From a virus, in IMG/VR virus record IMGVR_UViG_3300021091_005158, positions 6,070-70,069 of that record: a stretch of DNA of 64,000 bases, one strand, 5' to 3'. The first letter of the stretch is position 1. The number at the start of each line of letters is the position of its first letter. Under the pieces are notes generated by a model, which made no database searches, had not been told where the DNA came from, and was given only the letters and a program-made list of their open reading frames with translations. Positions 20,779-58,365 of this stretch are shown here, in pieces. Position numbers and translations under genes: made by a program.

Positions 20779-21582
20779 ATGGGTATGGATTTAGGCGCAA
20801 TTAAGTCTAAACTAACCGCCTTGCAAAATCAAAGGCAAAGCGGTCAAAAGAGAGATATGTCTCTTATTTTATGGAAACCGTCAATAGGTAAGCATGTTGT
20901 CCGTATTGTTCCGGCTTTATGGGATAAATCAAATCCTTTTAAAGAGGTAATGTTCCATTACGGTATTGGAAACAAGGTAATGCTAGCCTTAACTAACTAC
21001 GGGGAAAAGGATCCTATTGTAGAGTTTTCCAAACAGCTTGCTTCTAGCGGCGATAAAGAGAACTGGATTATGTCTCGTAAATTAGAACCAAAGATGCGTG
21101 TATTTACTCCTGTTATCGTACGCAGCGAAGAAGAAAAAGGTGTACGCCTTTGGGAATTCGGCAAGCAAATTTATGCTGAATTATTAAGTCTAGCTGATGA
21201 TCCTGATATCGGAGACTTTACTGACATTATTCAAGGCCGCGATATAACTATCGAAACCACCGGGCCTGAAACTAACGGTACTTCTTTTAACCAATCGAAA
21301 GTACGAGTACGTACAAAAACAACACCACTATCTGAAGATTCAAAAGAGGTAGAGAAGTGGCTAGCAAATCAACCGGATTTATTTAGTAGTTTCAGGAAGT
21401 ATAGCTACGAAGATATGAAAGAAGCCCTACTTGGATGGTTGAATCCAGAAGAAACCTCTGAAGAGCTTCCTCCTACCGCTAAACAGGAAGCTACACCTCC
21501 TGCAAAACCAAGCTCTCTTTCTCTAAATACTCCAAAGGCTAAACCTAGCATTGACGAAGAATTCGATGATCTATTTAAGTAA
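20779..21582 (+). CDS. Putative ssDNA-binding protein with acidic C-terminal tail
   Basis: C-terminus ...SIDEEFDDLFK resembles the acidic interaction tails of SSBs (gp32-like); lies immediately upstream of the recombinase gene. Confidence 0.3.
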   Translation: MGMDLGAIKSKLTALQNQRQSGQKRDMSLILWKPSIGKHVVRIVPALWDKSNPFKEVMFHYGIGNKVMLALTNYGEKDPIVEFSKQLASSGDKENWIMSRKLEPKMRVFTPVIVRSEEEKGVRLWEFGKQIYAELLSLADDPDIGDFTDIIQGRDITIETTGPETNGTSFNQSKVRVRTKTTPLSEDSKEVEKWLANQPDLFSSFRKYSYEDMKEALLGWLNPEETSEELPPTAKQEATPPAKPSSLSLNTPKAKPSIDEEFDDLFK

Positions 21583-21588
21583 ATATTT

Positions 21589-22665
21589 ATGGTTAAACTA
21601 GCTAAAGCCTCGTTAAACGAAAGTATAGCGGGAGCTGTTAAAGGTACTTTTAATTTAGAAAAGTTTATTCAATCTAAAAATCTTTCAAGTACCTCAATAA
21701 AAATGAAAGAGCAAACTTGGATTCCTTTATCAAAGGCTTTTCAAGACTGTCTTTCTATCCCCGGTATTCCGGTTGGGCATATCTCGTTGCTACGTGGACA
21801 TTCAGATACTGGTAAGACTACTGCTCTTTTAGAAGCTGCAGTTAGCGCTCAAAAGACTGGTATCTTACCTGTATTTATTATTACTGAGATGAAATGGAAT
21901 TGGGATCATGCTAAGCAAATGGGACTTGTATTCGAAGAAGTCCCTAACGAGGAAGGTGAGGTTGCTGATTACAAAGGGTTTTTTATTTATATAGATAGAG
22001 AAAGACTAAATACTATCGAAGATGTAGCAGCATTTATTGCAGATCTTCTTGATGAACAAAAGAAAGGTAATCTACCCTACAACTTACTGTTTCTTTGGGA
22101 TTCAGTAGGATCTATTCCTTGCCGTTTATCAGTCGAGTCTAATAAAAATAATAATGAGTGGAATGCAGGTTCTATGTCACAGCAGTTTGGTAATTTTATC
22201 AATCAAAAGATTGTTTTATCACGCAAACAAAGCCAACCTTATACTAATACTATGCTTGCGGTTAATAAAATCTGGGTTGCTAAAGCTGAGAATATTATGG
22301 CCCAGCCTAAGATGAAAAATAAAGGCGGTGATACAATGTATTTTGATGCTTCTCTAATTATTACTTTTGGTAATGTAACTAATTCAGGAACTAATAAGAT
22401 TAAAGCAACTAAGAACGGAAAGGACGTTGAATTTGCTAAACGTACTAAAATAAGTTGCGATAAGAATCACGTAAATGATGTTACATCTACTGGACGGGTA
22501 ATTATGACTGCTCATGGCTTTATTGATGATACAAAACAAGCAATTGATGCTTATAAGAAGCAATATTCAAAAGATTGGCTTAAAACTCTTGGCTCTAAAG
22601 ATTTCGATGTAATTATTGAAACTGACGAAGATAACAAAGACGTTTTTGATCCTACTGAAGAATAG
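21589..22665 (+). CDS. RecA-family recombinase/ATPase (UvsX/Sak4-like)
   Basis: Walker A GHSDTGKTT and Walker B-like FIYIDRE; RecA-fold length. Confidence 0.5.
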   Translation: MVKLAKASLNESIAGAVKGTFNLEKFIQSKNLSSTSIKMKEQTWIPLSKAFQDCLSIPGIPVGHISLLRGHSDTGKTTALLEAAVSAQKTGILPVFIITEMKWNWDHAKQMGLVFEEVPNEEGEVADYKGFFIYIDRERLNTIEDVAAFIADLLDEQKKGNLPYNLLFLWDSVGSIPCRLSVESNKNNNEWNAGSMSQQFGNFINQKIVLSRKQSQPYTNTMLAVNKIWVAKAENIMAQPKMKNKGGDTMYFDASLIITFGNVTNSGTNKIKATKNGKDVEFAKRTKISCDKNHVNDVTSTGRVIMTAHGFIDDTKQAIDAYKKQYSKDWLKTLGSKDFDVIIETDEDNKDVFDPTEE

Positions 22666-22690: not shown

Positions 22691-24088
22691 GTGACAAGAA
22701 TAAACTTAGGTATACCACCTAAAGAACTAACAAATAAGCATCTTATTGCTGAACATAGAGAGTTAAAACGTATACCGAACGTTGTAGCTAAAGGTAGATT
22801 TAATCTTAGTAGTATACCTCAAGAATTTAGCTTAGGAAAAGGTCATGTATCTTTTTTCTACGATAAATTAGGGCATTTAAAAGAGAGGTATATTGAATTA
22901 TACAACGAATGCATATCAAGAGGATTTAATGTACAGAATTACTTAAAGTCATGGGACTGTATACCTCAAGAGTTAATGAACGGTTATACGCCTACCGAAA
23001 AAGATATTCATATAATACGTGAAAGGATAGCGGACAGGCTTGCAAATCCAATCGCAAAACAAAAAAAAATGGACTACAGGAAAATCTTTGAACAGATGGA
23101 GAAGCAAGAGCCGGTAGAGTTACATAAGAATAGTAGAGTACTTATTGTTGATTCTTTAAATACTTTCCTTCGTAGCTTTACAGCTATTAGTCATATCAAT
23201 CTAAGCGGGGCACATATCGGAGGTTTAGGGGGATTTTTAAAATCTATAGGGTCTCTGATAAAACAATTGCATCCGACAAGAGTTATTTTAGTGTTTGACG
23301 GACAAGGGGGGTCTACTAACAAGAGATATCTTTATCCAGAGTATAAAGCTAATAGACATATTACAAAAATTTCTAATTGGGATGCTTTTGACGACCAAGA
23401 AGAGGAGTCAGAATCGATAACTGCTCAAATAGTACGTCTAATTGATTATCTCAAATGTCTCCCTGTTGATCTCGTAGTCGTAGATAAAATTGAAGCTGAC
23501 GACGTAATAGGCTTCTTAACAGGGAAATTTAAAGATAAAGTATTTATTATATCGACTGATCAAGATTACCTCCAATTGGTAAAGAAAGATGTTACTGTTT
23601 TCAGTCCAGTAAAGAAAATTATTTACAACCCATATCAAGTCCTGACCGATTACGGTATACCACCCCATAACTTTTTAACCCATAAAATTATAGTAGGGGA
23701 TAAAGGAGATAACGTACCTGGGGTAAGAGGTATAGCAGCAAAAACCCTTATAAAATTATTTCCTGCGATTGCAACTGAAGATAGATTTACTATAGAGGAA
23801 CTGATAAAGGAGTGCGAAGGAAAAGATAAGAAGTATGCTAACATTTATAACTTCAGAAATCAACTTCTTATAAATAAACAGTTAATGGACTTAGAGAATC
23901 CAAATATTCCCGATTCCGATAAGTTAGCTCTTGAAAATATTGTTGCAAATCCTAAAAATAATTTCGACCCTAATTGTTTTGTAAGATTATACAAAGAAGA
24001 TCAGCTAGGAAAAACATTGCTAAATCCTCAATTATGGCTTAATGAAACTTTTGCAAAATTAATTCAATATAAGTTAAAAGATCAATAA
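22691..24088 (+). CDS. Fusion protein: T4 endonuclease V-like pyrimidine-dimer DNA glycosylase (N-terminal) + 5'-3' flap endonuclease (FEN/RNase H-like)
   Basis: GTG start. MTRINLGIPPKELTNKHLIAEHRELKRIP...GKGHVSFFYDKL...RGFN tracks T4 DenV (MTRINL...HLMAEYRELPR...GAGHVTFFYDKL...RGFN). Continues in frame into VLIVDSLNTFLRSF... and HhH-like FEN motifs. Confidence 0.6.
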   Translation: MTRINLGIPPKELTNKHLIAEHRELKRIPNVVAKGRFNLSSIPQEFSLGKGHVSFFYDKLGHLKERYIELYNECISRGFNVQNYLKSWDCIPQELMNGYTPTEKDIHIIRERIADRLANPIAKQKKMDYRKIFEQMEKQEPVELHKNSRVLIVDSLNTFLRSFTAISHINLSGAHIGGLGGFLKSIGSLIKQLHPTRVILVFDGQGGSTNKRYLYPEYKANRHITKISNWDAFDDQEEESESITAQIVRLIDYLKCLPVDLVVVDKIEADDVIGFLTGKFKDKVFIISTDQDYLQLVKKDVTVFSPVKKIIYNPYQVLTDYGIPPHNFLTHKIIVGDKGDNVPGVRGIAAKTLIKLFPAIATEDRFTIEELIKECEGKDKKYANIYNFRNQLLINKQLMDLENPNIPDSDKLALENIVANPKNNFDPNCFVRLYKEDQLGKTLLNPQLWLNETFAKLIQYKLKDQ

Positions 24089-24107: not shown

Positions 24108-25481
24108 ATGAGTGTTTTAAATCAGCTGAACCAGTACGGCGTAAGCTTTCAAATAAAAGTCCTATCTAGTCTTCTTAAGCATAGAGAATTTCTGCTTAGT
24201 ATATTCGATATTCTCGAAGAAGACTATTTCGATAATCCAGCTCATAAATGGATTGTAGAGGAAATTTTAAAATACCATTATAAATTTCATACTACACCAA
24301 CACTAGATGTATTAACTGTAGAAATAAAAAAAATTGAAAATGAAATACTGAAAGTATCTGTAATTGAGCAATTAAAAGAGGCTTATAAAGCATCAAACGA
24401 AGATAGAGATTTTGTTGAGCAAGAATTTTCTAACTTCTGCAAAAATCAGCAGTTAAAAAAAGCATTACTATCATCTGTTGAATTACTCGAAAAAGGTCAA
24501 TATGATGATATTCGTTACCTTATTGATACTGCCCTTAAGGCGGGTCAAGATAAAAATATTGGCCACGAGTATGAAAAAGATGCTGAGACTCGTTATAGAA
24601 CGGAAGAGAGAAGCCCTCAACCTACTCCATGGGAGCATATAAACGGGCTACTACAGGGCGGATTAGGTTCAGGGGATTTAGGTATTATATTCGGCAATCC
24701 CGGAGGGGGTAAGAGTTGGATGCTCGTAGCTTTAGGAGCAATGATAGTTTCAAGCGGAGGGACTGTAGCTCACTATACTCTCGAACTTTCAGAAACATAT
24801 ATGGGTAAAAGATATGACTCTATATTTACTGGTATAAGAATTCAGGATCTTTACTTACATAGAAAAGAAGTAGATGAAGCAGTCAGCAAACTGCCCGGTA
24901 AACTTATTATCAAAGAATTTACTATGGGTAAAGCATCTATATCTACTATTGAGAGTCATATTCAGAAACTTACTGATCTAGGAAACAGACCTAATCTCAT
25001 TATTATTGACTATGTTGATCTTTTGAAATCAAAAAGAAAATCAGTTGAGAGAAAAGACGAAATAGACGATATTTATGTTTCAACTAAAGCCTTGGCTAGA
25101 GATTTAAAGATTCCTGTTTGGACCGTATCTCAAGTAAATCGAGCTGGCGCAAAAGATGATGTAATAGAAGGAGATAAGGCTGCTGGTAGTTATAATAAAA
25201 TAATGATTGCAGACTTTGCGATGTCCTTGTCTAGGAAGAGGTTAGATAAAGTTAACGGTACAGGTAGAGCACATATTATGAAAAACCGTTATGGAGGGGA
25301 CGGTATGACATATCCTGTAAAAATTAATACTGAAAATGGGAATATCGAGATACAATCACGTGAGATGGGCGAAGAAGAGTTTGTTCAGGAAGGTGCTGCA
25401 GTACCTATGAAGCCTGTTACTAGATTTAGTGCAGAAGAACGAAATTTTTTACAGCAAAGGTTTTTTGAATTAGGGAAATAA
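24108..25481 (+). CDS. DnaB-family replicative helicase
   Basis: Walker A GIIFGNPGGGKSW; IIDYVDLL; SQVNRAGAKDD (H4 arginine-finger region). Confidence 0.75.
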   Translation: MSVLNQLNQYGVSFQIKVLSSLLKHREFLLSIFDILEEDYFDNPAHKWIVEEILKYHYKFHTTPTLDVLTVEIKKIENEILKVSVIEQLKEAYKASNEDRDFVEQEFSNFCKNQQLKKALLSSVELLEKGQYDDIRYLIDTALKAGQDKNIGHEYEKDAETRYRTEERSPQPTPWEHINGLLQGGLGSGDLGIIFGNPGGGKSWMLVALGAMIVSSGGTVAHYTLELSETYMGKRYDSIFTGIRIQDLYLHRKEVDEAVSKLPGKLIIKEFTMGKASISTIESHIQKLTDLGNRPNLIIIDYVDLLKSKRKSVERKDEIDDIYVSTKALARDLKIPVWTVSQVNRAGAKDDVIEGDKAAGSYNKIMIADFAMSLSRKRLDKVNGTGRAHIMKNRYGGDGMTYPVKINTENGNIEIQSREMGEEEFVQEGAAVPMKPVTRFSAEERNFLQQRFFELGK

Positions 25482-25725: not shown

Positions 25726-25815
25726 TATTAATGATCACAGTTACGATTTTGACGGTATCGTAAGATAACCGATAGAATTACTTATCTTTAAAATTATAAA
25801 AAAAAAGAGTAAAAA

Positions 25816-46273: not shown

Positions 46274-46645
46274 ATGTCGAAGTTACAACCGTTAAATGGG
46301 TATTTAATTTTAAGACCTATAGAAGAAGAGGAACAAATGTATGGTAATATTGTTATTCCAGATTTAGGAAAAGAGAGGCCTGAGATGGGAGAAGTGATTG
46401 CTGTCTCTGCTACGTATAATTTTAATTCTGATAAACTAGTACTTTCAAATCTTGAATTAGGAGACAAAGTTCTTATCCCTAAACTAGGTTCTCTAAGAAT
46501 CACTGTAGAAAGCGAAGAATATTTTATTTGCAAAGAGCAAGACGTCTACGCAAAATTAAGCGGACAATTAAGTGTTTTATCAGTTCTTAAAGAGACAGTA
46601 GTTGATCCTGATTTTGAAAAATACAACAACAGTAAAGTATCATAA
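46274..46645 (+). CDS. groES: Co-chaperonin GroES
   Basis: LQPLNGYLILRPIEEEEQ...GNIVIPD matches GroES (kPL.DRVlvkr.E.E..t.gGI.lP). Confidence 0.7.
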   Translation: MSKLQPLNGYLILRPIEEEEQMYGNIVIPDLGKERPEMGEVIAVSATYNFNSDKLVLSNLELGDKVLIPKLGSLRITVESEEYFICKEQDVYAKLSGQLSVLSVLKETVVDPDFEKYNNSKVS

Positions 46646-46646
46646 A

Positions 46647-48269
46647 ATGACAACAACAGTATTTGGAATTGAATTAAAAAATAAGTTACTTGCGGGTATT
46701 AAAAAATTAAATGAATCGGTAACTTCCACTTTAGGGCCAGGAGGCCGTACAGTGTTAATTAAAGAAAAATCTGGCGAAGTAAAAGTAACTAAAGACGGAG
46801 TTACAGTAGCTCGTTCCTTTCACGAACTTGAAGACCAGGTTGAAGACCTTGGTGCCCAGCTAGTAAAGCAGGTATCCATAAAGTCTGCTAATGAAGCAGG
46901 AGACGGAACTACTACCTCTACTCTTCTTGCTACAACAATGGTTGAAGAAGGATTAAAGCTTATTAATCAAGGATCTAACCCAGTAGAGGTTAAGAAAGCT
47001 ATTGAGGTTTACGTAAAAGAAGTTATCGATAACTTAAAAAAAATATCGAAAGATATTTCCTCTCAAGATCAAATTCGTCAAGTAGCAGCTATCTCTGCAA
47101 ATAACGATATTGAGATAGGCAATCTAATATCAGCTGCTATTGAAAAAGTAGGAAGAGAAGGTATTGTTACTATTGAAGAATCTAAAACAGGTGAAACTGC
47201 TTTGGAGATAGTAGAAGGTATGCAGTTTGATAGAGGATACAAATCCCCATACTTCGTTACTAATAATACTACAATGCATGCAGTCTTGAATGAACCTTAT
47301 ATTCTTATTTACGATGGCCGTATCACTAAAGCTGCTGATATTTTAAATTCGTTAACTAAAGCCAACTCCGATCAAAAAGCTTTACTAATAGTAGCTGAAG
47401 ATATAGAAGACGAAGCGCTTGCTACTTTGATAGTAAATAAAATGCGCGGTATAGTTTATGTAGCAGGAGTAAAAGCTCCTGACTTTGGGGAACGCCGTAC
47501 TTTAATCTTAGAAGATCTAGCTATTTTAACCGGGGGACAGGTAATTTCTAAAAATAAAGGACATAAACTAGAGAAAATAACCCCGTTACAGTTAACGGAA
47601 TTTTTCGGAGTCGCAAGAACTGTTACGGTATCTAAAGAAACCACTACTATAGTTGATGGCAAAGGTAATATAGATGCTATAAGCTTAAGAGCTGAAGAGA
47701 TAAAAGATCAAATTGAAAAAGCTACATCATTTTATGAGAAAGAAAAGCTTCAGGAGAGGCTTGGTAAATTAGTTGGCGGAGTAGCTATTATTTCAGTAGG
47801 AGGAAATTCCGATATTGAGATTAAAGAAAAGAAAGATAGGGTAGAAGATGCTTTGTTTGCTACTAAAGCAGCTCTAGTAGAAGGCGTAGTTCCTGGTGGA
47901 GGACTTGCATTAATTACAGCATTCGAAAATATTAAATTACCTTTAACATCAAGCGATGAGCAAAAAGGTTGGAATATAGTTAAAAGAGCTTGTCATGCTC
48001 CTTTCAAAGTAATTTTAACAAACTGTGGTATTGAAGATCACTACCGTATTTTAAGTGAAATTAAGAATTATGAAAGTCAAGAATCAGCTCACACTTATGA
48101 TGCTAAAAATCAAAAAGTAGTAGAGGCAACTGAAGCAGGTCTTCTTGATCCGACTAAAGTCACACGTACTGCTCTTGAAAATGCTGCCTCCGTAGCAGGT
48201 ACTATACTAACAACAGAATCAGTAATTTTCGAAAAAAAAGACGATAAGAAAAAAGATGAAGAAATTTAA
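46647..48269 (+). CDS. groEL: Chaperonin GroEL
   Basis: [17 protein letters not shown] and GGGLAL motifs. Start placed at MTTTVFG (46647), just after the GroES stop; the listed ORF start at 46602 overlaps GroES. Confidence 0.85.
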
Positions 48270-55604: not shown

Positions 55605-57050
55605 ATGTCAAAAGAAGGTTATATTCCAAAAGAGCAGAGAAAAAAAATACTTTTGCTTGCAGACGATATTCGATTTACCTCTGGAATATCTACAATGGCT
55701 AAAGAGATAGTTATCGGAACCTCTCATCGCTTAAACTGGGTTAACTTAGGCGCAGCTATTACACACCCAGAAGCAGGTAAAAAACTTGATTTATGCGCAG
55801 ATACAAACACTTTAGCGAAGATCGAAGATGCTTCGGTTTTTATATATCCTCACTCAGGTTATGGATCTCAAGAGATCTTACGTCAATTAATTGAAATCGA
55901 AAAGCCTGATGCTATCGTTTTCTTTACTGATCCTAGATATTGGATCTGGCTTTTTCAGATAGAGAATGAAGTAAGAAAGAAAATACCAATGGTATATCTT
56001 AATATATGGGACGATTTACCTGCACCTCTCTATAATAAAGCTTATTATGAATCTTGTGATGCATTGATGGCTATCTCAAAGCAAACTTTTAATATTAATA
56101 AGCTAGTACTTGGAGAAAAAGCTAAGGACAAAGTAATAAAATATGTTCCTCACGGTATCAACGAGGAAGTATTCTATCCCATTACTCCTGAAATGACAGA
56201 AGACTATAGTAAGGTTAAAGAGAAGAAAAAGAAGTTTTTTGGAGAAAATCAACCTAATTTCGTTATTCTTTATAACGCGCGAAATATTAGAAGGAAGTGT
56301 GTACCTGATTTGATAGTAGGTTATGTTGAATTTTGCAATCAGTTGCCTCTAGAAGAAGCTAAAAAATGTGCATTACTCCTACACACACAGCCTGTAGATG
56401 ATAACGGAACCGATCTTCCGGCAGTTATCGAGCTGTTATGTGATCCTGAGAGACATAGGGTAGTATTTTCTACTGATAGAAACTCTCCTTATGATATGAA
56501 TATATTATATAACTGCTGTGACGTAGTAGCCCTCGTCTCTTCTAATGAAGGATGGGGACTGTCGCTTACTGAAGGTATGATGTGTGGTAGGCCTATAATT
56601 GCAACAGTTACCGGAGGAATGCAAGATCAAATTAGATTTGAAGATAAGCAAGGCAATTGGATAGAGTTTAACGAAAACTTTTGTAGCAATCATTTCGGAA
56701 CTTATAAGACTCACGGCAATTGGGCATTCCCCATATTTCCTAGCAATATTAGTCTTGTAGGGTCCGTACCTACTCCGTATATCTTTGACGACAAAGCCGA
56801 CTTCCGAGATATCGCTATTCAAATATCTGCTTGTTATAAATCAGGCGAGAATTTCCGTAAGTTTATCGGAGCGGAAGCTCGAAAATGGGTAACTTCGGAC
56901 GAATCTATGATGTCAGCTAGAGCTATGTGTAAAAATGTTATAGATACACTTGAAGAGACTTTTGCTAAATGGAAGCCGAGACCAAGTCACGAATTTATTA
57001 AGATATCAAAATTACCTAAGAAAAAAATTATACATAAGCTAACTTATTAA
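55605..57050 (+). CDS. Glycosyltransferase, GT-B fold (GT4/GT1-like)
   Basis: SNEGWGLSLTEGMMCGRPIIATVTGG matches the E-x7-E / EGFG...EA.a.G.PvIa donor-binding motif. Confidence 0.55.
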   Translation: MSKEGYIPKEQRKKILLLADDIRFTSGISTMAKEIVIGTSHRLNWVNLGAAITHPEAGKKLDLCADTNTLAKIEDASVFIYPHSGYGSQEILRQLIEIEKPDAIVFFTDPRYWIWLFQIENEVRKKIPMVYLNIWDDLPAPLYNKAYYESCDALMAISKQTFNINKLVLGEKAKDKVIKYVPHGINEEVFYPITPEMTEDYSKVKEKKKKFFGENQPNFVILYNARNIRRKCVPDLIVGYVEFCNQLPLEEAKKCALLLHTQPVDDNGTDLPAVIELLCDPERHRVVFSTDRNSPYDMNILYNCCDVVALVSSNEGWGLSLTEGMMCGRPIIATVTGGMQDQIRFEDKQGNWIEFNENFCSNHFGTYKTHGNWAFPIFPSNISLVGSVPTPYIFDDKADFRDIAIQISACYKSGENFRKFIGAEARKWVTSDESMMSARAMCKNVIDTLEETFAKWKPRPSHEFIKISKLPKKKIIHKLTY

Positions 57051-57051
57051 A

Positions 57052-58365
57052 ATGAAGCAGTTCTGTGTTATTTCAGCTCCGCCGGATACTTATAGCGGTT
57101 ATGGAGCAAGAGCGAGGGATTTTATAAAAGCAGTTTACGAACTAAAAAAAGATCAATGGGATATAAAAATTATGTCTCAGAGATGGGGTAGTACTCCTTG
57201 GGGTTTTATAGATGATAATCTAGAGGAGTGGGGATGGATGAAACCTCTTTTAATAAACAATCAGTTACCTAAGCAACCAGATGTATGGATACAGATTACG
57301 GTTCCAAATGAATTTCAGCCTGTAGGTAAAGTAAATATCGGAGTAACTGCCGGAATAGAGACTACTGTATGCGACCCCGAATTCATTATAGGATGTAATA
57401 AAATGAATTTAGTTTTAGTATCTTCTAATCATGCTAAAAAAGTATTTGAAAGTACTACTTATGAGCAGAGGGATAAAAATAGTAACGCTGTAGTTGAAAT
57501 AATTAAAATAAAAGCCCCTGTAGAGATATTATTTGAAGGTGTAGATTTAAATAAGTATTTTTATATCCCTAAAGAACAATTAGAGTGTACTCCTCTTGTC
57601 AATAATCTAAATAGTATTTCAGAGCAATTTAGTTACTTATTTGTGGGGCATTGGCTCCCAGGAGACTTCGGCGAAGATAGAAAGAATACGAGTCTTTTAA
57701 TTAAGATATTTTTAGAATCGTTTAAAGATAAAAAAGAACAACCAGCCTTGATTTTAAAAACTTCTCAAGCTGGTGCTAGCATAATGGATAGAGATGAGGT
57801 ATTAAGAAAAATAGATATAATTAGAGAAAGCGTAGAAGCAAAAAAACTTCCAAATATTTATCTCGTACACGGTGATTTAGATGATAAGGAGATTAACAAT
57901 TTATATAATCATCCAAAAGTGAAGGCTTTCGTATCTCTAACTAAAGGAGAAGGCTTCGGTAGACCATTAGCTGAATTCAGTCTATCTAAAAAACCTTTAA
58001 TCGCTTCAGGATGGTCCGGTCATACTGATTTTTTGAACCCTGAATTTAGCATCCTTCTCCCAGGAGAAATAACTCCCGTACATCCTTCAGCATTTGCAAA
58101 AGGGCTAATTATAGAAGGCTCATCTTGGTTCTCAGTCAATCATTCTGCAGCTGCCCAAGCTTTAGTTGACGTTTATAAAAATTATAGTAAATTTGAAGGA
58201 CCTGCTAAGAGGCAAGCTTATAAAATTAAAAATGAATTTAACTGGGACAACATGGTCTTAGTTTTAAATGAATATTTAAACCGTTACGTACCTGAACAAA
58301 AAGAGATAGTATTACCTAAGCTAAAAAAAATTGAACTTCCTAAACTTACAAAATTAACTTTATGA
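57052..58365 (+). CDS. Glycosyltransferase, GT-B fold (GT4-like)
   Basis: TKGEGFGRPLAEFSLSKKPLIASGWSG: the same GT-B C-terminal motif. Confidence 0.5.
   Translation: MKQFCVISAPPDTYSGYGARARDFIKAVYELKKDQWDIKIMSQRWGSTPWGFIDDNLEEWGWMKPLLINNQLPKQPDVWIQITVPNEFQPVGKVNIGVTAGIETTVCDPEFIIGCNKMNLVLVSSNHAKKVFESTTYEQRDKNSNAVVEIIKIKAPVEILFEGVDLNKYFYIPKEQLECTPLVNNLNSISEQFSYLFVGHWLPGDFGEDRKNTSLLIKIFLESFKDKKEQPALILKTSQAGASIMDRDEVLRKIDIIRESVEAKKLPNIYLVHGDLDDKEINNLYNHPKVKAFVSLTKGEGFGRPLAEFSLSKKPLIASGWSGHTDFLNPEFSILLPGEITPVHPSAFAKGLIIEGSSWFSVNHSAAAQALVDVYKNYSKFEGPAKRQAYKIKNEFNWDNMVLVLNEYLNRYVPEQKEIVLPKLKKIELPKLTKLTL

Follow-up and report, generated by a model that had tools for sequence, protein, structure and literature searches.

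Does the reading frame that joins a DenV-type pyrimidine-dimer glycosylase to a flap endonuclease (FEN) in this viral DNA represent one genuine gene, and if so, how did it arise and what might its product do? An in-frame fusion of the two enzymes had been proposed in an earlier note on the 64,000-nucleotide stretch analysed here, referred to as the window. The ORF listing of the window contains a single unbroken frame of 465 aa at this position, divided as follows.

22691..24088, + strand: fused denV-FEN ORF, 465 codons, GTG start, TAA stop at 24086-24088 (ORF listing, two-domain matches, identical ORF in independent contigs)
22691..23050, + strand: DenV, pyrimidine-dimer glycosylase/AP-lyase domain, aa 1-120 (profile and structure matches, AF2 model)
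23051..23131, + strand: linker, aa 121-147, NPIAKQKK followed by MDYRKIFEQMEKQEPVELH... (low pLDDT; FEN of relatives starts MDYRK)
23132..24085, + strand: FEN/5'-3' exonuclease domain with a family-specific helical C-terminal region, aa 148-465 (Pfam, PHROGs, homologue alignment, AF2 model)

Both domains were recognised by Pfam, PHROGs and a PDB sequence search. Pyr_excise matched aa 1-83 (E 4.5e-13, 49.8 bits, cut-off 23), so the N-terminal region does fit the profile whose failure the earlier note had named as a possible refutation. In the domain-wise HMM search proposed there, 5_3_exonuc_N likewise exceeded its cut-off of 34.3 on aa 150-322 (E 2.7e-29, 102.4 bits, profile positions 2-164 of 164), and 5_3_exonuc, which represents the SAM/H3TH fold, reached 35.2 bits on aa 323-403 against a curated cut-off of 40. 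PHROGs assigned aa 1-120 to endonuclease V (1.6e-37) and aa 127-416 to an exonuclease (2.3e-35). T4 endonuclease V (2END) aligned to aa 1-119 with an E-value of 3e-21, and this alignment contains the motifs reported previously, namely MTRINL, AEHRELKR, GKGHVSFFYDKL and RGFN. M. smegmatis FenA, Taq Pol I and T5 exonuclease aligned to aa ~140-400. Thus, the ORF is a true in-frame fusion of a DenV-type glycosylase and a FEN, with matches far beyond chance. The parts are already known; new is their fusion, which was found only in this lineage.

The DenV half is 42% identical to T4 endonuclease V (2END, 1VAS, 2FCC) across ~120 residues and shares its all-helical fold. Thr2, Arg3, Arg23, Glu24 and Arg27 correspond to Thr2, Arg3, Arg22, Glu23 and Arg26 of the T4 enzyme and are invariant across 30 homologues. 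As in T4 endonuclease V, the initiator Met is directly followed by Thr2, encoded here by GTG-ACA at 22691. [quoted passage not shown] N-glycosylase activity on cyclobutane pyrimidine dimers (CPDs) followed by beta-elimination via the alpha-amine Schiff base (PMC3285167). Because DenV is the N-terminal partner of the fusion, the alpha-amino group of Thr2 would stay free after removal of the initiator Met. An AF2 model of aa 1-160 built with DenV homologues had pLDDT values of 84-98 across aa 1-120 and showed the all-alpha endonuclease V fold; the top Foldseek matches of this model were T4 endonuclease V entries only, the best being 2END with a TM score of 0.78 and an rmsd of 2.0 A. With the catalytic residues all present, CPD glycosylase/AP-lyase activity is predicted for this half.

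Two features set the window domain apart from known pyrimidine-dimer glycosylases. T4 endonuclease V and the chlorella virus enzyme cv-PDG stand alone at ~138-141 aa, whereas DenV of the window lineage runs on into a 339-aa FEN. Furthermore, the T4 enzyme ends with the aromatic segment WYKYYGKAIYA, which contributes to dimer binding. The window DenV family stops at ...RLANPIAKQKK, and this segment is found neither in the window protein nor in any of the ~70 family members. Thus, DenV activity should not be taken for granted. The aromatic C-terminus is a trait of T4 and cv-PDG-like members and lies outside the Pfam model, which comprises 81 positions; a W/F-Y-R-Y equivalent was found in the more distant DenVs L086-L092.

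The earlier note had also described a full FEN domain behind DenV, and this is in line with the 5_3_exonuc_N score and with retention of the metal-binding carboxylates. Asp154, Asp203, Glu268, Asp270, Asp290, Asp292, Asp337 and Asp340 are invariant or nearly so in 40 homologues, and the translation contains the FEN motifs VDSLN, VFDG, EADD, STDQD and GDKGDN. The H3TH region, whose Pfam score lies below the curated cut-off, can be aligned with T5 exonuclease and Pol I as far as aa ~400 and was modelled with pLDDT >90; the FEN half as a whole had pLDDT values of 86-97 in a full-length AF2 model. This model was built with FEN homologues only, so its DenV half is uninformative and the models carry no inter-domain geometry. 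Residues ~148-465 appear to be a complete FEN/5'-3' exonuclease, for which flap and 5'-exonuclease activity is predicted from conserved motifs. A match to PF02739 and the full set of metal-binding carboxylates, together with a PF01367 match that is below the cut-off in the window protein, link the window FEN to T5 D15 exonuclease (1EXN), T4 RNase H (1TFR), M. smegmatis FenA (6C33) and the 5' nuclease domain of Pol I. The window FEN bears a 126-residue glycosylase domain at its N-terminus; the Pol I FEN is instead joined C-terminally to a polymerase. The helical C-terminal extra region of the window FEN (aa ~405-465) is common to its stand-alone relatives.

The genomic context of the fused gene points to replication. 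It sits in a module with SSB, UvsX-like, DnaB, RNR and PolA genes, and its neighbours are the following.

20779-21582: gp32-like SSB, preceding the UvsX/RecA-like gene
21589..22665, + strand: UvsX/RecA-like recombinase, upstream neighbour, same order in relatives
24108..25481, + strand: DnaB-like replicative helicase, downstream neighbour, same order in relatives

PolA of this phage has only the 3'-5' exonuclease and polymerase domains and no 5' nuclease domain. The position of FEN in the replication module beside such a PolA makes it likely that FEN is the replication flap nuclease responsible for processing of Okazaki primers and flaps.

How the two genes came together is indicated by their relatives. 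In ~70 related IMG/VR loci with the order denV-FEN (DenV 66-94% and FEN 53-92% identical to the window), the genes are separate and in different frames, except in members sharing at least 98% identity with the window. The split pairs, such as L003 (Ga0172365_10001391), L017 and P0122 + P0124, share the gene order SSB, UvsX-like, denV, FEN, DnaB, RNR with the window. Their denV overruns the 5' end of FEN by 3-27 codons in the other frame, giving DenV proteins of 129-158 aa with a frame-overlap tail and separate FENs of 338-339 aa. Likewise, the 90% cluster of the fusion contains 465-aa fusions together with DenV (142-148 aa) and FEN (329-338 aa) proteins of sister phages. The nearest split pair is 94% (DenV) and 92% (FEN) identical to the window and has the same KQKK/ATG junction. 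The difference in frame arises where the two genes meet.

23061..23069, + strand: A9 homopolymer at the fusion point, zero frame CA-A-AAA-AAA-ATG (relatives have 10 nt here)
23069..23071, + strand: internal ATG, Met127, the ancestral FEN start, with an A-rich leader without Shine-Dalgarno sequence
23089..23091, + strand: TGA in the -1 frame; with an additional A at the run, translation would stop here and give a stand-alone DenV of 134 aa (...KQKKNGLQENL)
23115-23117: TAG in the +1 frame, a stop soon after A9

Fused contigs read C-A9-TGG, the nearest split relatives CAAAAGAAGAATGG and others CAAAAAAAGAATGG; the 10-nt tracts of relatives at the fusion point are AAAAGAAGAA, AAAAAAAGAA and similar. 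In the alignment of fused and split loci, one 1-nt gap is seen at the junction, and deletion of a G from ...CAAAAAAAGAATGG... of the relatives yields exactly ...CAAAAAAAAATGG... of the window. The split sister pairs thus hold one extra purine-tract nucleotide, which keeps the two genes in different frames. The last A of A9 is the first base of the ATG at which stand-alone FEN homologues begin: in 56 related loci the FEN match starts at an ATG in this position, and stand-alone FENs of 338-339 aa begin with MDYRK. The -1 frame at A9 is the frame of denV in relatives, in which the tails begin with NGLQ or DGLQ. Accordingly, the ~27-residue linker is composed of the conserved C-terminal KQKK motif of DenV and the natural N-terminal tail of FEN; its pLDDT was low in both models (35-54 in the aa 1-160 model, 52-71 in the full-length model). 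Two other A9 runs occur in the window, both just upstream of start codons.

We consider it probable that the ORF is a genuine, recent gene fusion which arose by a one-nucleotide deletion between overlapping genes. The ancestral state would have been a denV gene directly upstream of the replication FEN gene in a family of uncultured large freshwater phages, with a purine tract that coded for KQKK of DenV and at the same time formed the A-rich leader in front of the FEN ATG, and with denV extending for 3-27 non-conserved codons in a different frame into the 5' end of FEN. Loss of one base from this tract in one lineage (...CAAAAAAAGAATGG... to ...CAAAAAAAAATGG...) would have placed denV in frame with the FEN ATG and thereby converted separate into fused genes.

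Translation from the GTG at 22691 would then yield DenV (aa 1-120) connected by a flexible linker (aa ~121-147) to FEN (aa 148-465). As the FEN ATG and its A-rich leader are intact inside the fused ORF, a free 339-aa FEN is probably still made by internal initiation at Met127, so that the locus probably yields both a bifunctional fusion protein and free FEN. The leader of Met127 is of the type that precedes 42 of the 46 gene starts in the window, A-rich and with no SD-like motif. Free DenV might be released only via slippage at A9 or by proteolysis. Both halves should still work. The C-terminus of DenV tolerates variable tails in relatives, and the first ~20 residues of FEN lie ahead of the initial strand of its fold and are modelled with low confidence. 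A C-terminal addition has also been engineered into the chlorella virus homologue, built as a topical repair enzyme (PMC5768739).

The fused state is confined to one clade of at least 98% identity with ~1-2% nucleotide diversity. At least five fused haplotypes, all with A9, were found; they come from metagenomes of Lake Tanganyika, from further SRA runs and from a separate series of ERR accessions. These haplotypes differ at 39 variable sites, comprising 30 synonymous and 9 non-synonymous changes. The DenV part contains 7 synonymous and 1 non-synonymous changes (P about 1e-4 against 80% non-synonymous expected at random, in a simple binomial calculation that ignores transition bias and codon usage) and the FEN part 23 synonymous and 8 non-synonymous changes. 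The fusion has thus persisted through diversification of the clade. As it is confined to one shallow clade, this persistence could be due to recent hitch-hiking, and the fusion may be nearly neutral.

The earlier note knew of no description of this architecture, and our searches agree. At the protein level, 50,697 phage records gave single-domain matches only; no other DenV-FEN fusion was present in these records or in two large protein searches, and no near-identical DNA was found in the 50,697 records. Of the best 120 matches listed for the full-length query, the first was P0001, which is the fusion itself, and the remaining 119 were stand-alone FENs of 326-360 aa. The DenV-only protein search listed proteins of 125-169 aa and missed the 100%-identical fusion; for this reason it was not used as evidence that the fusion is absent elsewhere.

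Is the fusion of advantage to the phage? An adaptive reading, which we hold to be rather unlikely, assumes that the tether recruits the CPD glycosylase to sites of replication or repair, or couples incision at a dimer to removal of the dimer-bearing 5' end, while the weak GTG, the internal ATG and slippage at A9 determine in what proportions fused enzyme, free FEN and free DenV are made. If true, a surface-lake phage would possess the front end of short-patch UV repair in one natural polypeptide. The earlier note went further and saw a compact base-excision-repair device in which FEN processes the nick left by the glycosylase. The data do not favour this interpretation: the fusion goes back to the recent loss of one nucleotide in a single clade, whose ~70 relatives keep the genes split, and FEN sits in a replication module whose PolA lacks a 5' nuclease domain. 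Once DenV has incised, repair further requires an AP endonuclease that cleans the 3' end, as well as a polymerase and a ligase, none of which is supplied by the fusion. Apart from any benefit, the locus illustrates how overlapping phage genes can give rise to a multidomain gene in one step by a one-base deletion, with sister lineages keeping the state before the event. If active, the fusion would be the first DenV-type glycosylase seen naturally linked to a downstream repair nuclease. The matched pair of fused and split versions, at 92-94% identity, offers a test bed for tethered repair steps and UV survival, and might be of interest to those developing pyrimidine-dimer glycosylases into reagents or enzymes for topical repair.

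The A9 run raises the question of whether the fusion is undone, or its ratio set, during expression, such that slippage of RNA polymerase or a -1 shift of the ribosome on A-AAA-AAA turns much of the product into free 134-aa DenV. CA-A-AAA-AAA-ATG is a perfect zero-frame X-XXY-YYZ heptamer and the -1 frame stops after 8 codons. E. coli RNA polymerase slips detectably from about A8 upwards in a GFP reporter (PMC6260861), and poly(A) lysine stretches can let ribosomes slide (PMC4363877). In poly(A) transcriptional slippage of Citrobacter tssM (PMC4256274) or IS elements, an A run also lies where two frames meet, and lengthening or shortening the run by one nucleotide decides whether the products are separate or fused, just as at the window junction. 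Here, however, the change is fixed in the genome and distinguishes one lineage from another, and no programmed slippage was found. No stimulatory RNA structure was detected downstream (fold of 23055-23150, MFE -9 kcal/mol, z = 0.26, 124 of 200 shuffles as good), and A runs are poor slippage sites for bacterial RNA polymerase, with no activity below eight As and barely any fluorescence in the poly(A) series (PMC6260861). Moreover, the homopolymer is not conserved: the tracts of relatives are varied and interrupted by G, their genes are separate and need no recoding, and there is no sign of selection on the A9 run itself. On balance, we regard such recoding as unlikely.

Alternatively, the fusion might be a tolerated accident that cripples DenV or the fused FEN, the phage surviving on free FEN from the internal ATG with DenV being dispensable; it would then be an ordinary, short-lived population variant. 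The intact FEN start and leader, the weak GTG start of denV and the young age of the fused clade are compatible with this view, as is the accessory nature of denV: the closest cultured relatives, Flavobacterium immuto phages, have a FEN that is 41% identical and matches aa 128-461 only, and no DenV match was found in them in the protein-level search of 50,697 phage records. Nevertheless, crippling appears distinctly improbable given the excess of synonymous changes in the DenV half of five haplotypes free of stops and frameshifts, the retention of all its catalytic residues, and the fact that the fusion leaves the catalytic N-terminus untouched and alters a C-terminus that tolerates 3-27-residue tails in relatives.

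If these runs are short-read data, consensus errors at an A9 run would be uncommon. An under-called homopolymer in a true A10 genome with two overlapping genes, the sequencing error that the earlier note had considered, is very unlikely: a 9-base run at the join is a classic indel-error site and one more A would make denV read ...KQKKNGLQENL*, with the frame and tail type of relatives, but the same A9 is present in >30 contigs from many samples and two pipelines (JGI assemblies of several Lake Tanganyika samples; Logan re-assemblies of SRR7985618, SRR7988745 and SRR7008372) and in the separate ERR-accession series (ERR14789945, ERR14789946, ERR14789953), scans allowing 6-12 nt at the run gave only the 9-nt form in this lineage (one contig per collection), and A9 is shared by all of the at least five haplotypes, which differ at 39 other sites by mostly synonymous changes in both halves.

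As to the host of the fused lineage, 42 of the 46 gene starts in the window have no SD-like motif and are preceded by A-rich leaders. Together with a GC content of 34%, this suggests a Bacteroidota-like host (cf. PMC6847099), as deduced from the sequence. A scan of GTDB genomes returned two DenV-only contigs and no more, both from metagenome-assembled genomes.

The region at 22691-24088 (plus strand), proposed in the earlier note to join in frame a T4 endonuclease V-type pyrimidine-dimer glycosylase (DenV) and a flap endonuclease/5′-3′ exonuclease (FEN), is indeed a single uninterrupted ORF of 465 codons starting with GTG. Profile searches and solved structures match both of its halves, and in the domain-wise check Pyr_excise and 5_3_exonuc_N score above their Pfam cut-offs. 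By residue of the fusion protein the profile matches are:

Residues 1-83, Pyr_excise (Pfam, 49.8 bits, cut-off 23)
Residues 150-322, 5_3_exonuc_N (Pfam, 102.4 bits, cut-off 34.3)
Residues 323-403, H3TH/SAM domain (Pfam, 35.2 bits, slightly under the cut-off of 40)
Residues 1-120, endonuclease V (PHROGs)
Residues 127-416, exonuclease (PHROGs)

In a search of solved structures, T4 endonuclease V (2END) aligned with residues 1-119 (E 3e-21), with all of the T4 motifs previously reported visible, and FenA, Taq Pol I and T5 exonuclease aligned with residues ~140-400. Thr2, Arg3, Arg23, Glu24 and Arg27 of the DenV half, equivalent to Thr2, Arg3, Arg22, Glu23 and Arg26 of T4, were invariant in an alignment with 29 DenV homologues. 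An AlphaFold model of residues 1-160 had a pLDDT of 84-98 over residues 1-120 and was poor over residues 121-160; the sole significant PDB fold matches of the DenV model were T4 endonuclease V entries (TM 0.78, rmsd 2.0 Å). Among 40 FEN homologues, D154, D203, E268, D270, D290, D292, D337 and D340 were invariant or nearly so, and the FEN half of the full-length model reached a pLDDT of 86-97. Based on these alignments and models, which were read half by half, the predicted layout of the protein places DenV at residues 1-120 and FEN at 148-465, with a flexible linker (~121-147) between them. In one contig of the fused lineage (L101, Ga0194127_10001591), a clustered change of GATAAA to GGGGAA at gene positions 1010-1012 turns the invariant FEN Asp337 into Gly, which is due to a misassembly at this spot or else marks a variant with inactive FEN that depends on another copy or source.

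Each half shows the characteristics of its family except for the marginal H3TH score of FEN and the aromatic C-terminal segment of DenV. T4 endonuclease V carries the C-terminal WYKYYGKAIYA, whereas this segment is absent from the window DenV and the whole phage family (loci L003-L075), in which the domain terminates with ...RLANPIAKQKK (window 23051-23068). A W/F-Y-R-Y segment is kept in more distant DenVs (L086-L092).

The halves are joined at ...GCA AAA CAA AAA AAA ATG GAC TAC..., where the last A of a nine-A run (A9, 23061-23069) is the A of the ATG encoding Met127. This is the position at which stand-alone FEN homologues start. The alignment of Flavobacterium immuto phages begins at residue 128, and, leaving aside the query itself, the best 119 database matches are FENs 326-360 residues long that cover 70-73% of the query. 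Both alternative frames stop shortly beyond the run: one additional A gives ...KQKKNGLQENL* (134 residues), one A less a product of 142 residues.

At 90% identity, 465-residue fusions cluster together with pairs of DenV (142-148 residues) and FEN (329-338 residues), both encoded on the same sister-phage contigs. At the junction, fused contigs read C-A9-TGG. The nearest split relative, with protein identities of 94% (DenV) and 92% (FEN) and a nucleotide divergence of 11.8%, reads CAAAAGAAGAATGG; many other split relatives read CAAAAAAAGAATGG, and removal of that G yields exactly the window sequence. Of about 70 IMG/VR loci in which denV immediately precedes FEN (DenV 66-94% identical, FEN 53-92%), all have the two genes in different frames except the members whose identity to the window is 98% or more. 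DenV of the split loci stops 3-27 codons beyond the conserved KQKK motif, its tail of variable length being the N-terminal codons of FEN read in another frame. By parsimony over these loci, the split, overlapping state would be ancestral and the fusion the outcome of one recent 1-nt deletion.

In the window, which has a GC content of ~34%, 42 of 46 gene starts have A-rich leaders without a Shine-Dalgarno (SD)-like motif, such a motif being found in the other four. The leaders are A/T-rich with A peaks at −11 and −10, and the other two A9 runs (6183-6191 and 25798-25806) each lie immediately upstream of a start codon. These signals resemble the pattern of Bacteroidota, for which SD-independent initiation is known (PMC6847099), and would be consistent with a host initiating without SD pairing, e.g. 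a member of that phylum. As A-rich, SD-less leaders are typical here, the internal ATG of the fused ORF retains an ideal leader; the GTG start of the ORF is weak. Starts of denV are often weak or non-canonical, namely GTG in the fused lineage (window 22691) and in L022/L023, and ATC directly ahead of the essential Thr2 in several relatives (L050, L053, L054, L069 and L077); the FEN start is ATG in every case. This suggests low DenV abundance or the use of AUC initiation. Two main products are thus envisaged, a minor DenV-FEN fusion of ~53 kDa and a free 339-residue FEN. Slippage at the A9 run, by −1 frameshifting or polymerase stuttering that remakes a free DenV of the ancestral type, would be a minor and unlikely contribution: the run and its zero-frame A-AAA-AAA heptamer could permit it, but RNA folding at the junction revealed no stimulatory structure downstream (z = 0.26), the run lacks conservation among relatives, and E. 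coli RNA polymerase, in a study with reporters, did not slip on fewer than eight As and produced hardly any fluorescence from the poly(A) runs examined (PMC6260861).

A sequencing or assembly artefact between the domains, the objection raised in the earlier note, is highly improbable and contradicted by the recurrence of the same A9: 16 JGI contigs, from Lake Tanganyika water-column metagenomes (bioRxiv 10.1101/834861), encode exactly this protein and 11 Logan contigs a Met-start twin, three SRA runs re-assembled by Logan show the identical junction, a separate run series (ERR147899xx) supplies a variant haplotype, at least five haplotypes differing at 39 sites all retain A9 with the frame open, and scans tolerating 6-12 nt at the A run found nine only. 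Among the haplotypes, 30 changes are synonymous and nine non-synonymous, divided 7:1 in the DenV half (binomial P about 1e-4 versus 80% non-synonymous expected) and 23:8 in the FEN half, which argues that both halves have probably been under purifying selection since the fusion, as judged by a crude test on a shallow clade.

Within our searches, the architecture is as undescribed as had been presumed. None of 50,697 phage records covered at least 80% of the query, and no other two-domain protein was among the best 120 matches of a full-length search of 5.8 billion proteins. An exhaustive comparison with 1.84 billion cluster representatives, which would miss a distant fusion below ~177 bits, listed 150 best matches (148-384 residues), of which all but one had a single matched stretch and none matched outside the FEN part. 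A DenV-only protein search missed the 100%-identical 465-residue fusion protein itself (P0001) and can therefore overlook multidomain proteins; it was not counted. The DenV-FEN architecture may exist elsewhere, with none seen in the searched sets.

DenV should stay active in the fusion, as its N-terminal placement leaves free the Thr2 α-amine on which its chemistry depends (PMC3285167). The tails of 3-27 residues that relatives naturally carry, and a chlorella-virus homologue engineered with a C-terminal NLS extension as a topical repair enzyme (PMC5768739), argue that the DenV C-terminus would tolerate extension. The earlier note proposed that the fusion would be a compact base-excision-repair device. 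After incision by DenV, the 3′ end is an unsaturated aldehyde and the 5′ end still bears the dimer; an AP endonuclease and a polymerase come into play before a 5′-3′ exonuclease or flap nuclease removes the dimer-bearing strand. Because the flap nuclease acts later in the same pathway, a functional link is plausible and may be the reason for the conserved denV-FEN adjacency; the intermediate activities, AP endonuclease and polymerase, are however absent from the fusion, which falls short of a self-contained device. DenV-FEN is an undescribed combination of known parts made by the simplest possible mutation, apparently confined to one shallow clade and of putative benefit. Rather than a surprising new system, it is a neat illustration of how overlapping genes fuse where they meet, and it offers a ready-made natural experiment.

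The fusion sits in a replication/recombination module, which comprises in order:

20779-21582, gp32-like single-stranded DNA-binding protein
21589-22665, UvsX-like recombinase
22691-24088, plus strand, DenV-FEN fusion
24108-25481, DnaB-like helicase
After the helicase, ribonucleotide reductase
Further on, family-A polymerase with a 3′-5′ exonuclease domain and without a 5′ nuclease domain

Given this context and the polymerase devoid of a 5′ nuclease domain, FEN is likely the replication flap nuclease of the phage. Elsewhere in the window, four large ORFs (662-1409 residues; 9118-11490, 11725-13713, 14019-18248 and 28603-30942) have no PHROG match, and a Pfam scan of the last gave none either. 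A Cpn60/GroEL-type chaperonin with a TTG start is encoded at 46602-48269. QueC-like and QueF-like genes of the 7-cyano-7-deazaguanine pathway (36570-37460 and 38226-39143) hint at a possible 7-deazaguanine DNA-modification module, and two group-1 glycosyltransferase-like genes and an NAD-dependent sugar epimerase/dehydratase gene (55605-58365 and 35109-36056) may have a role in sugar modification.
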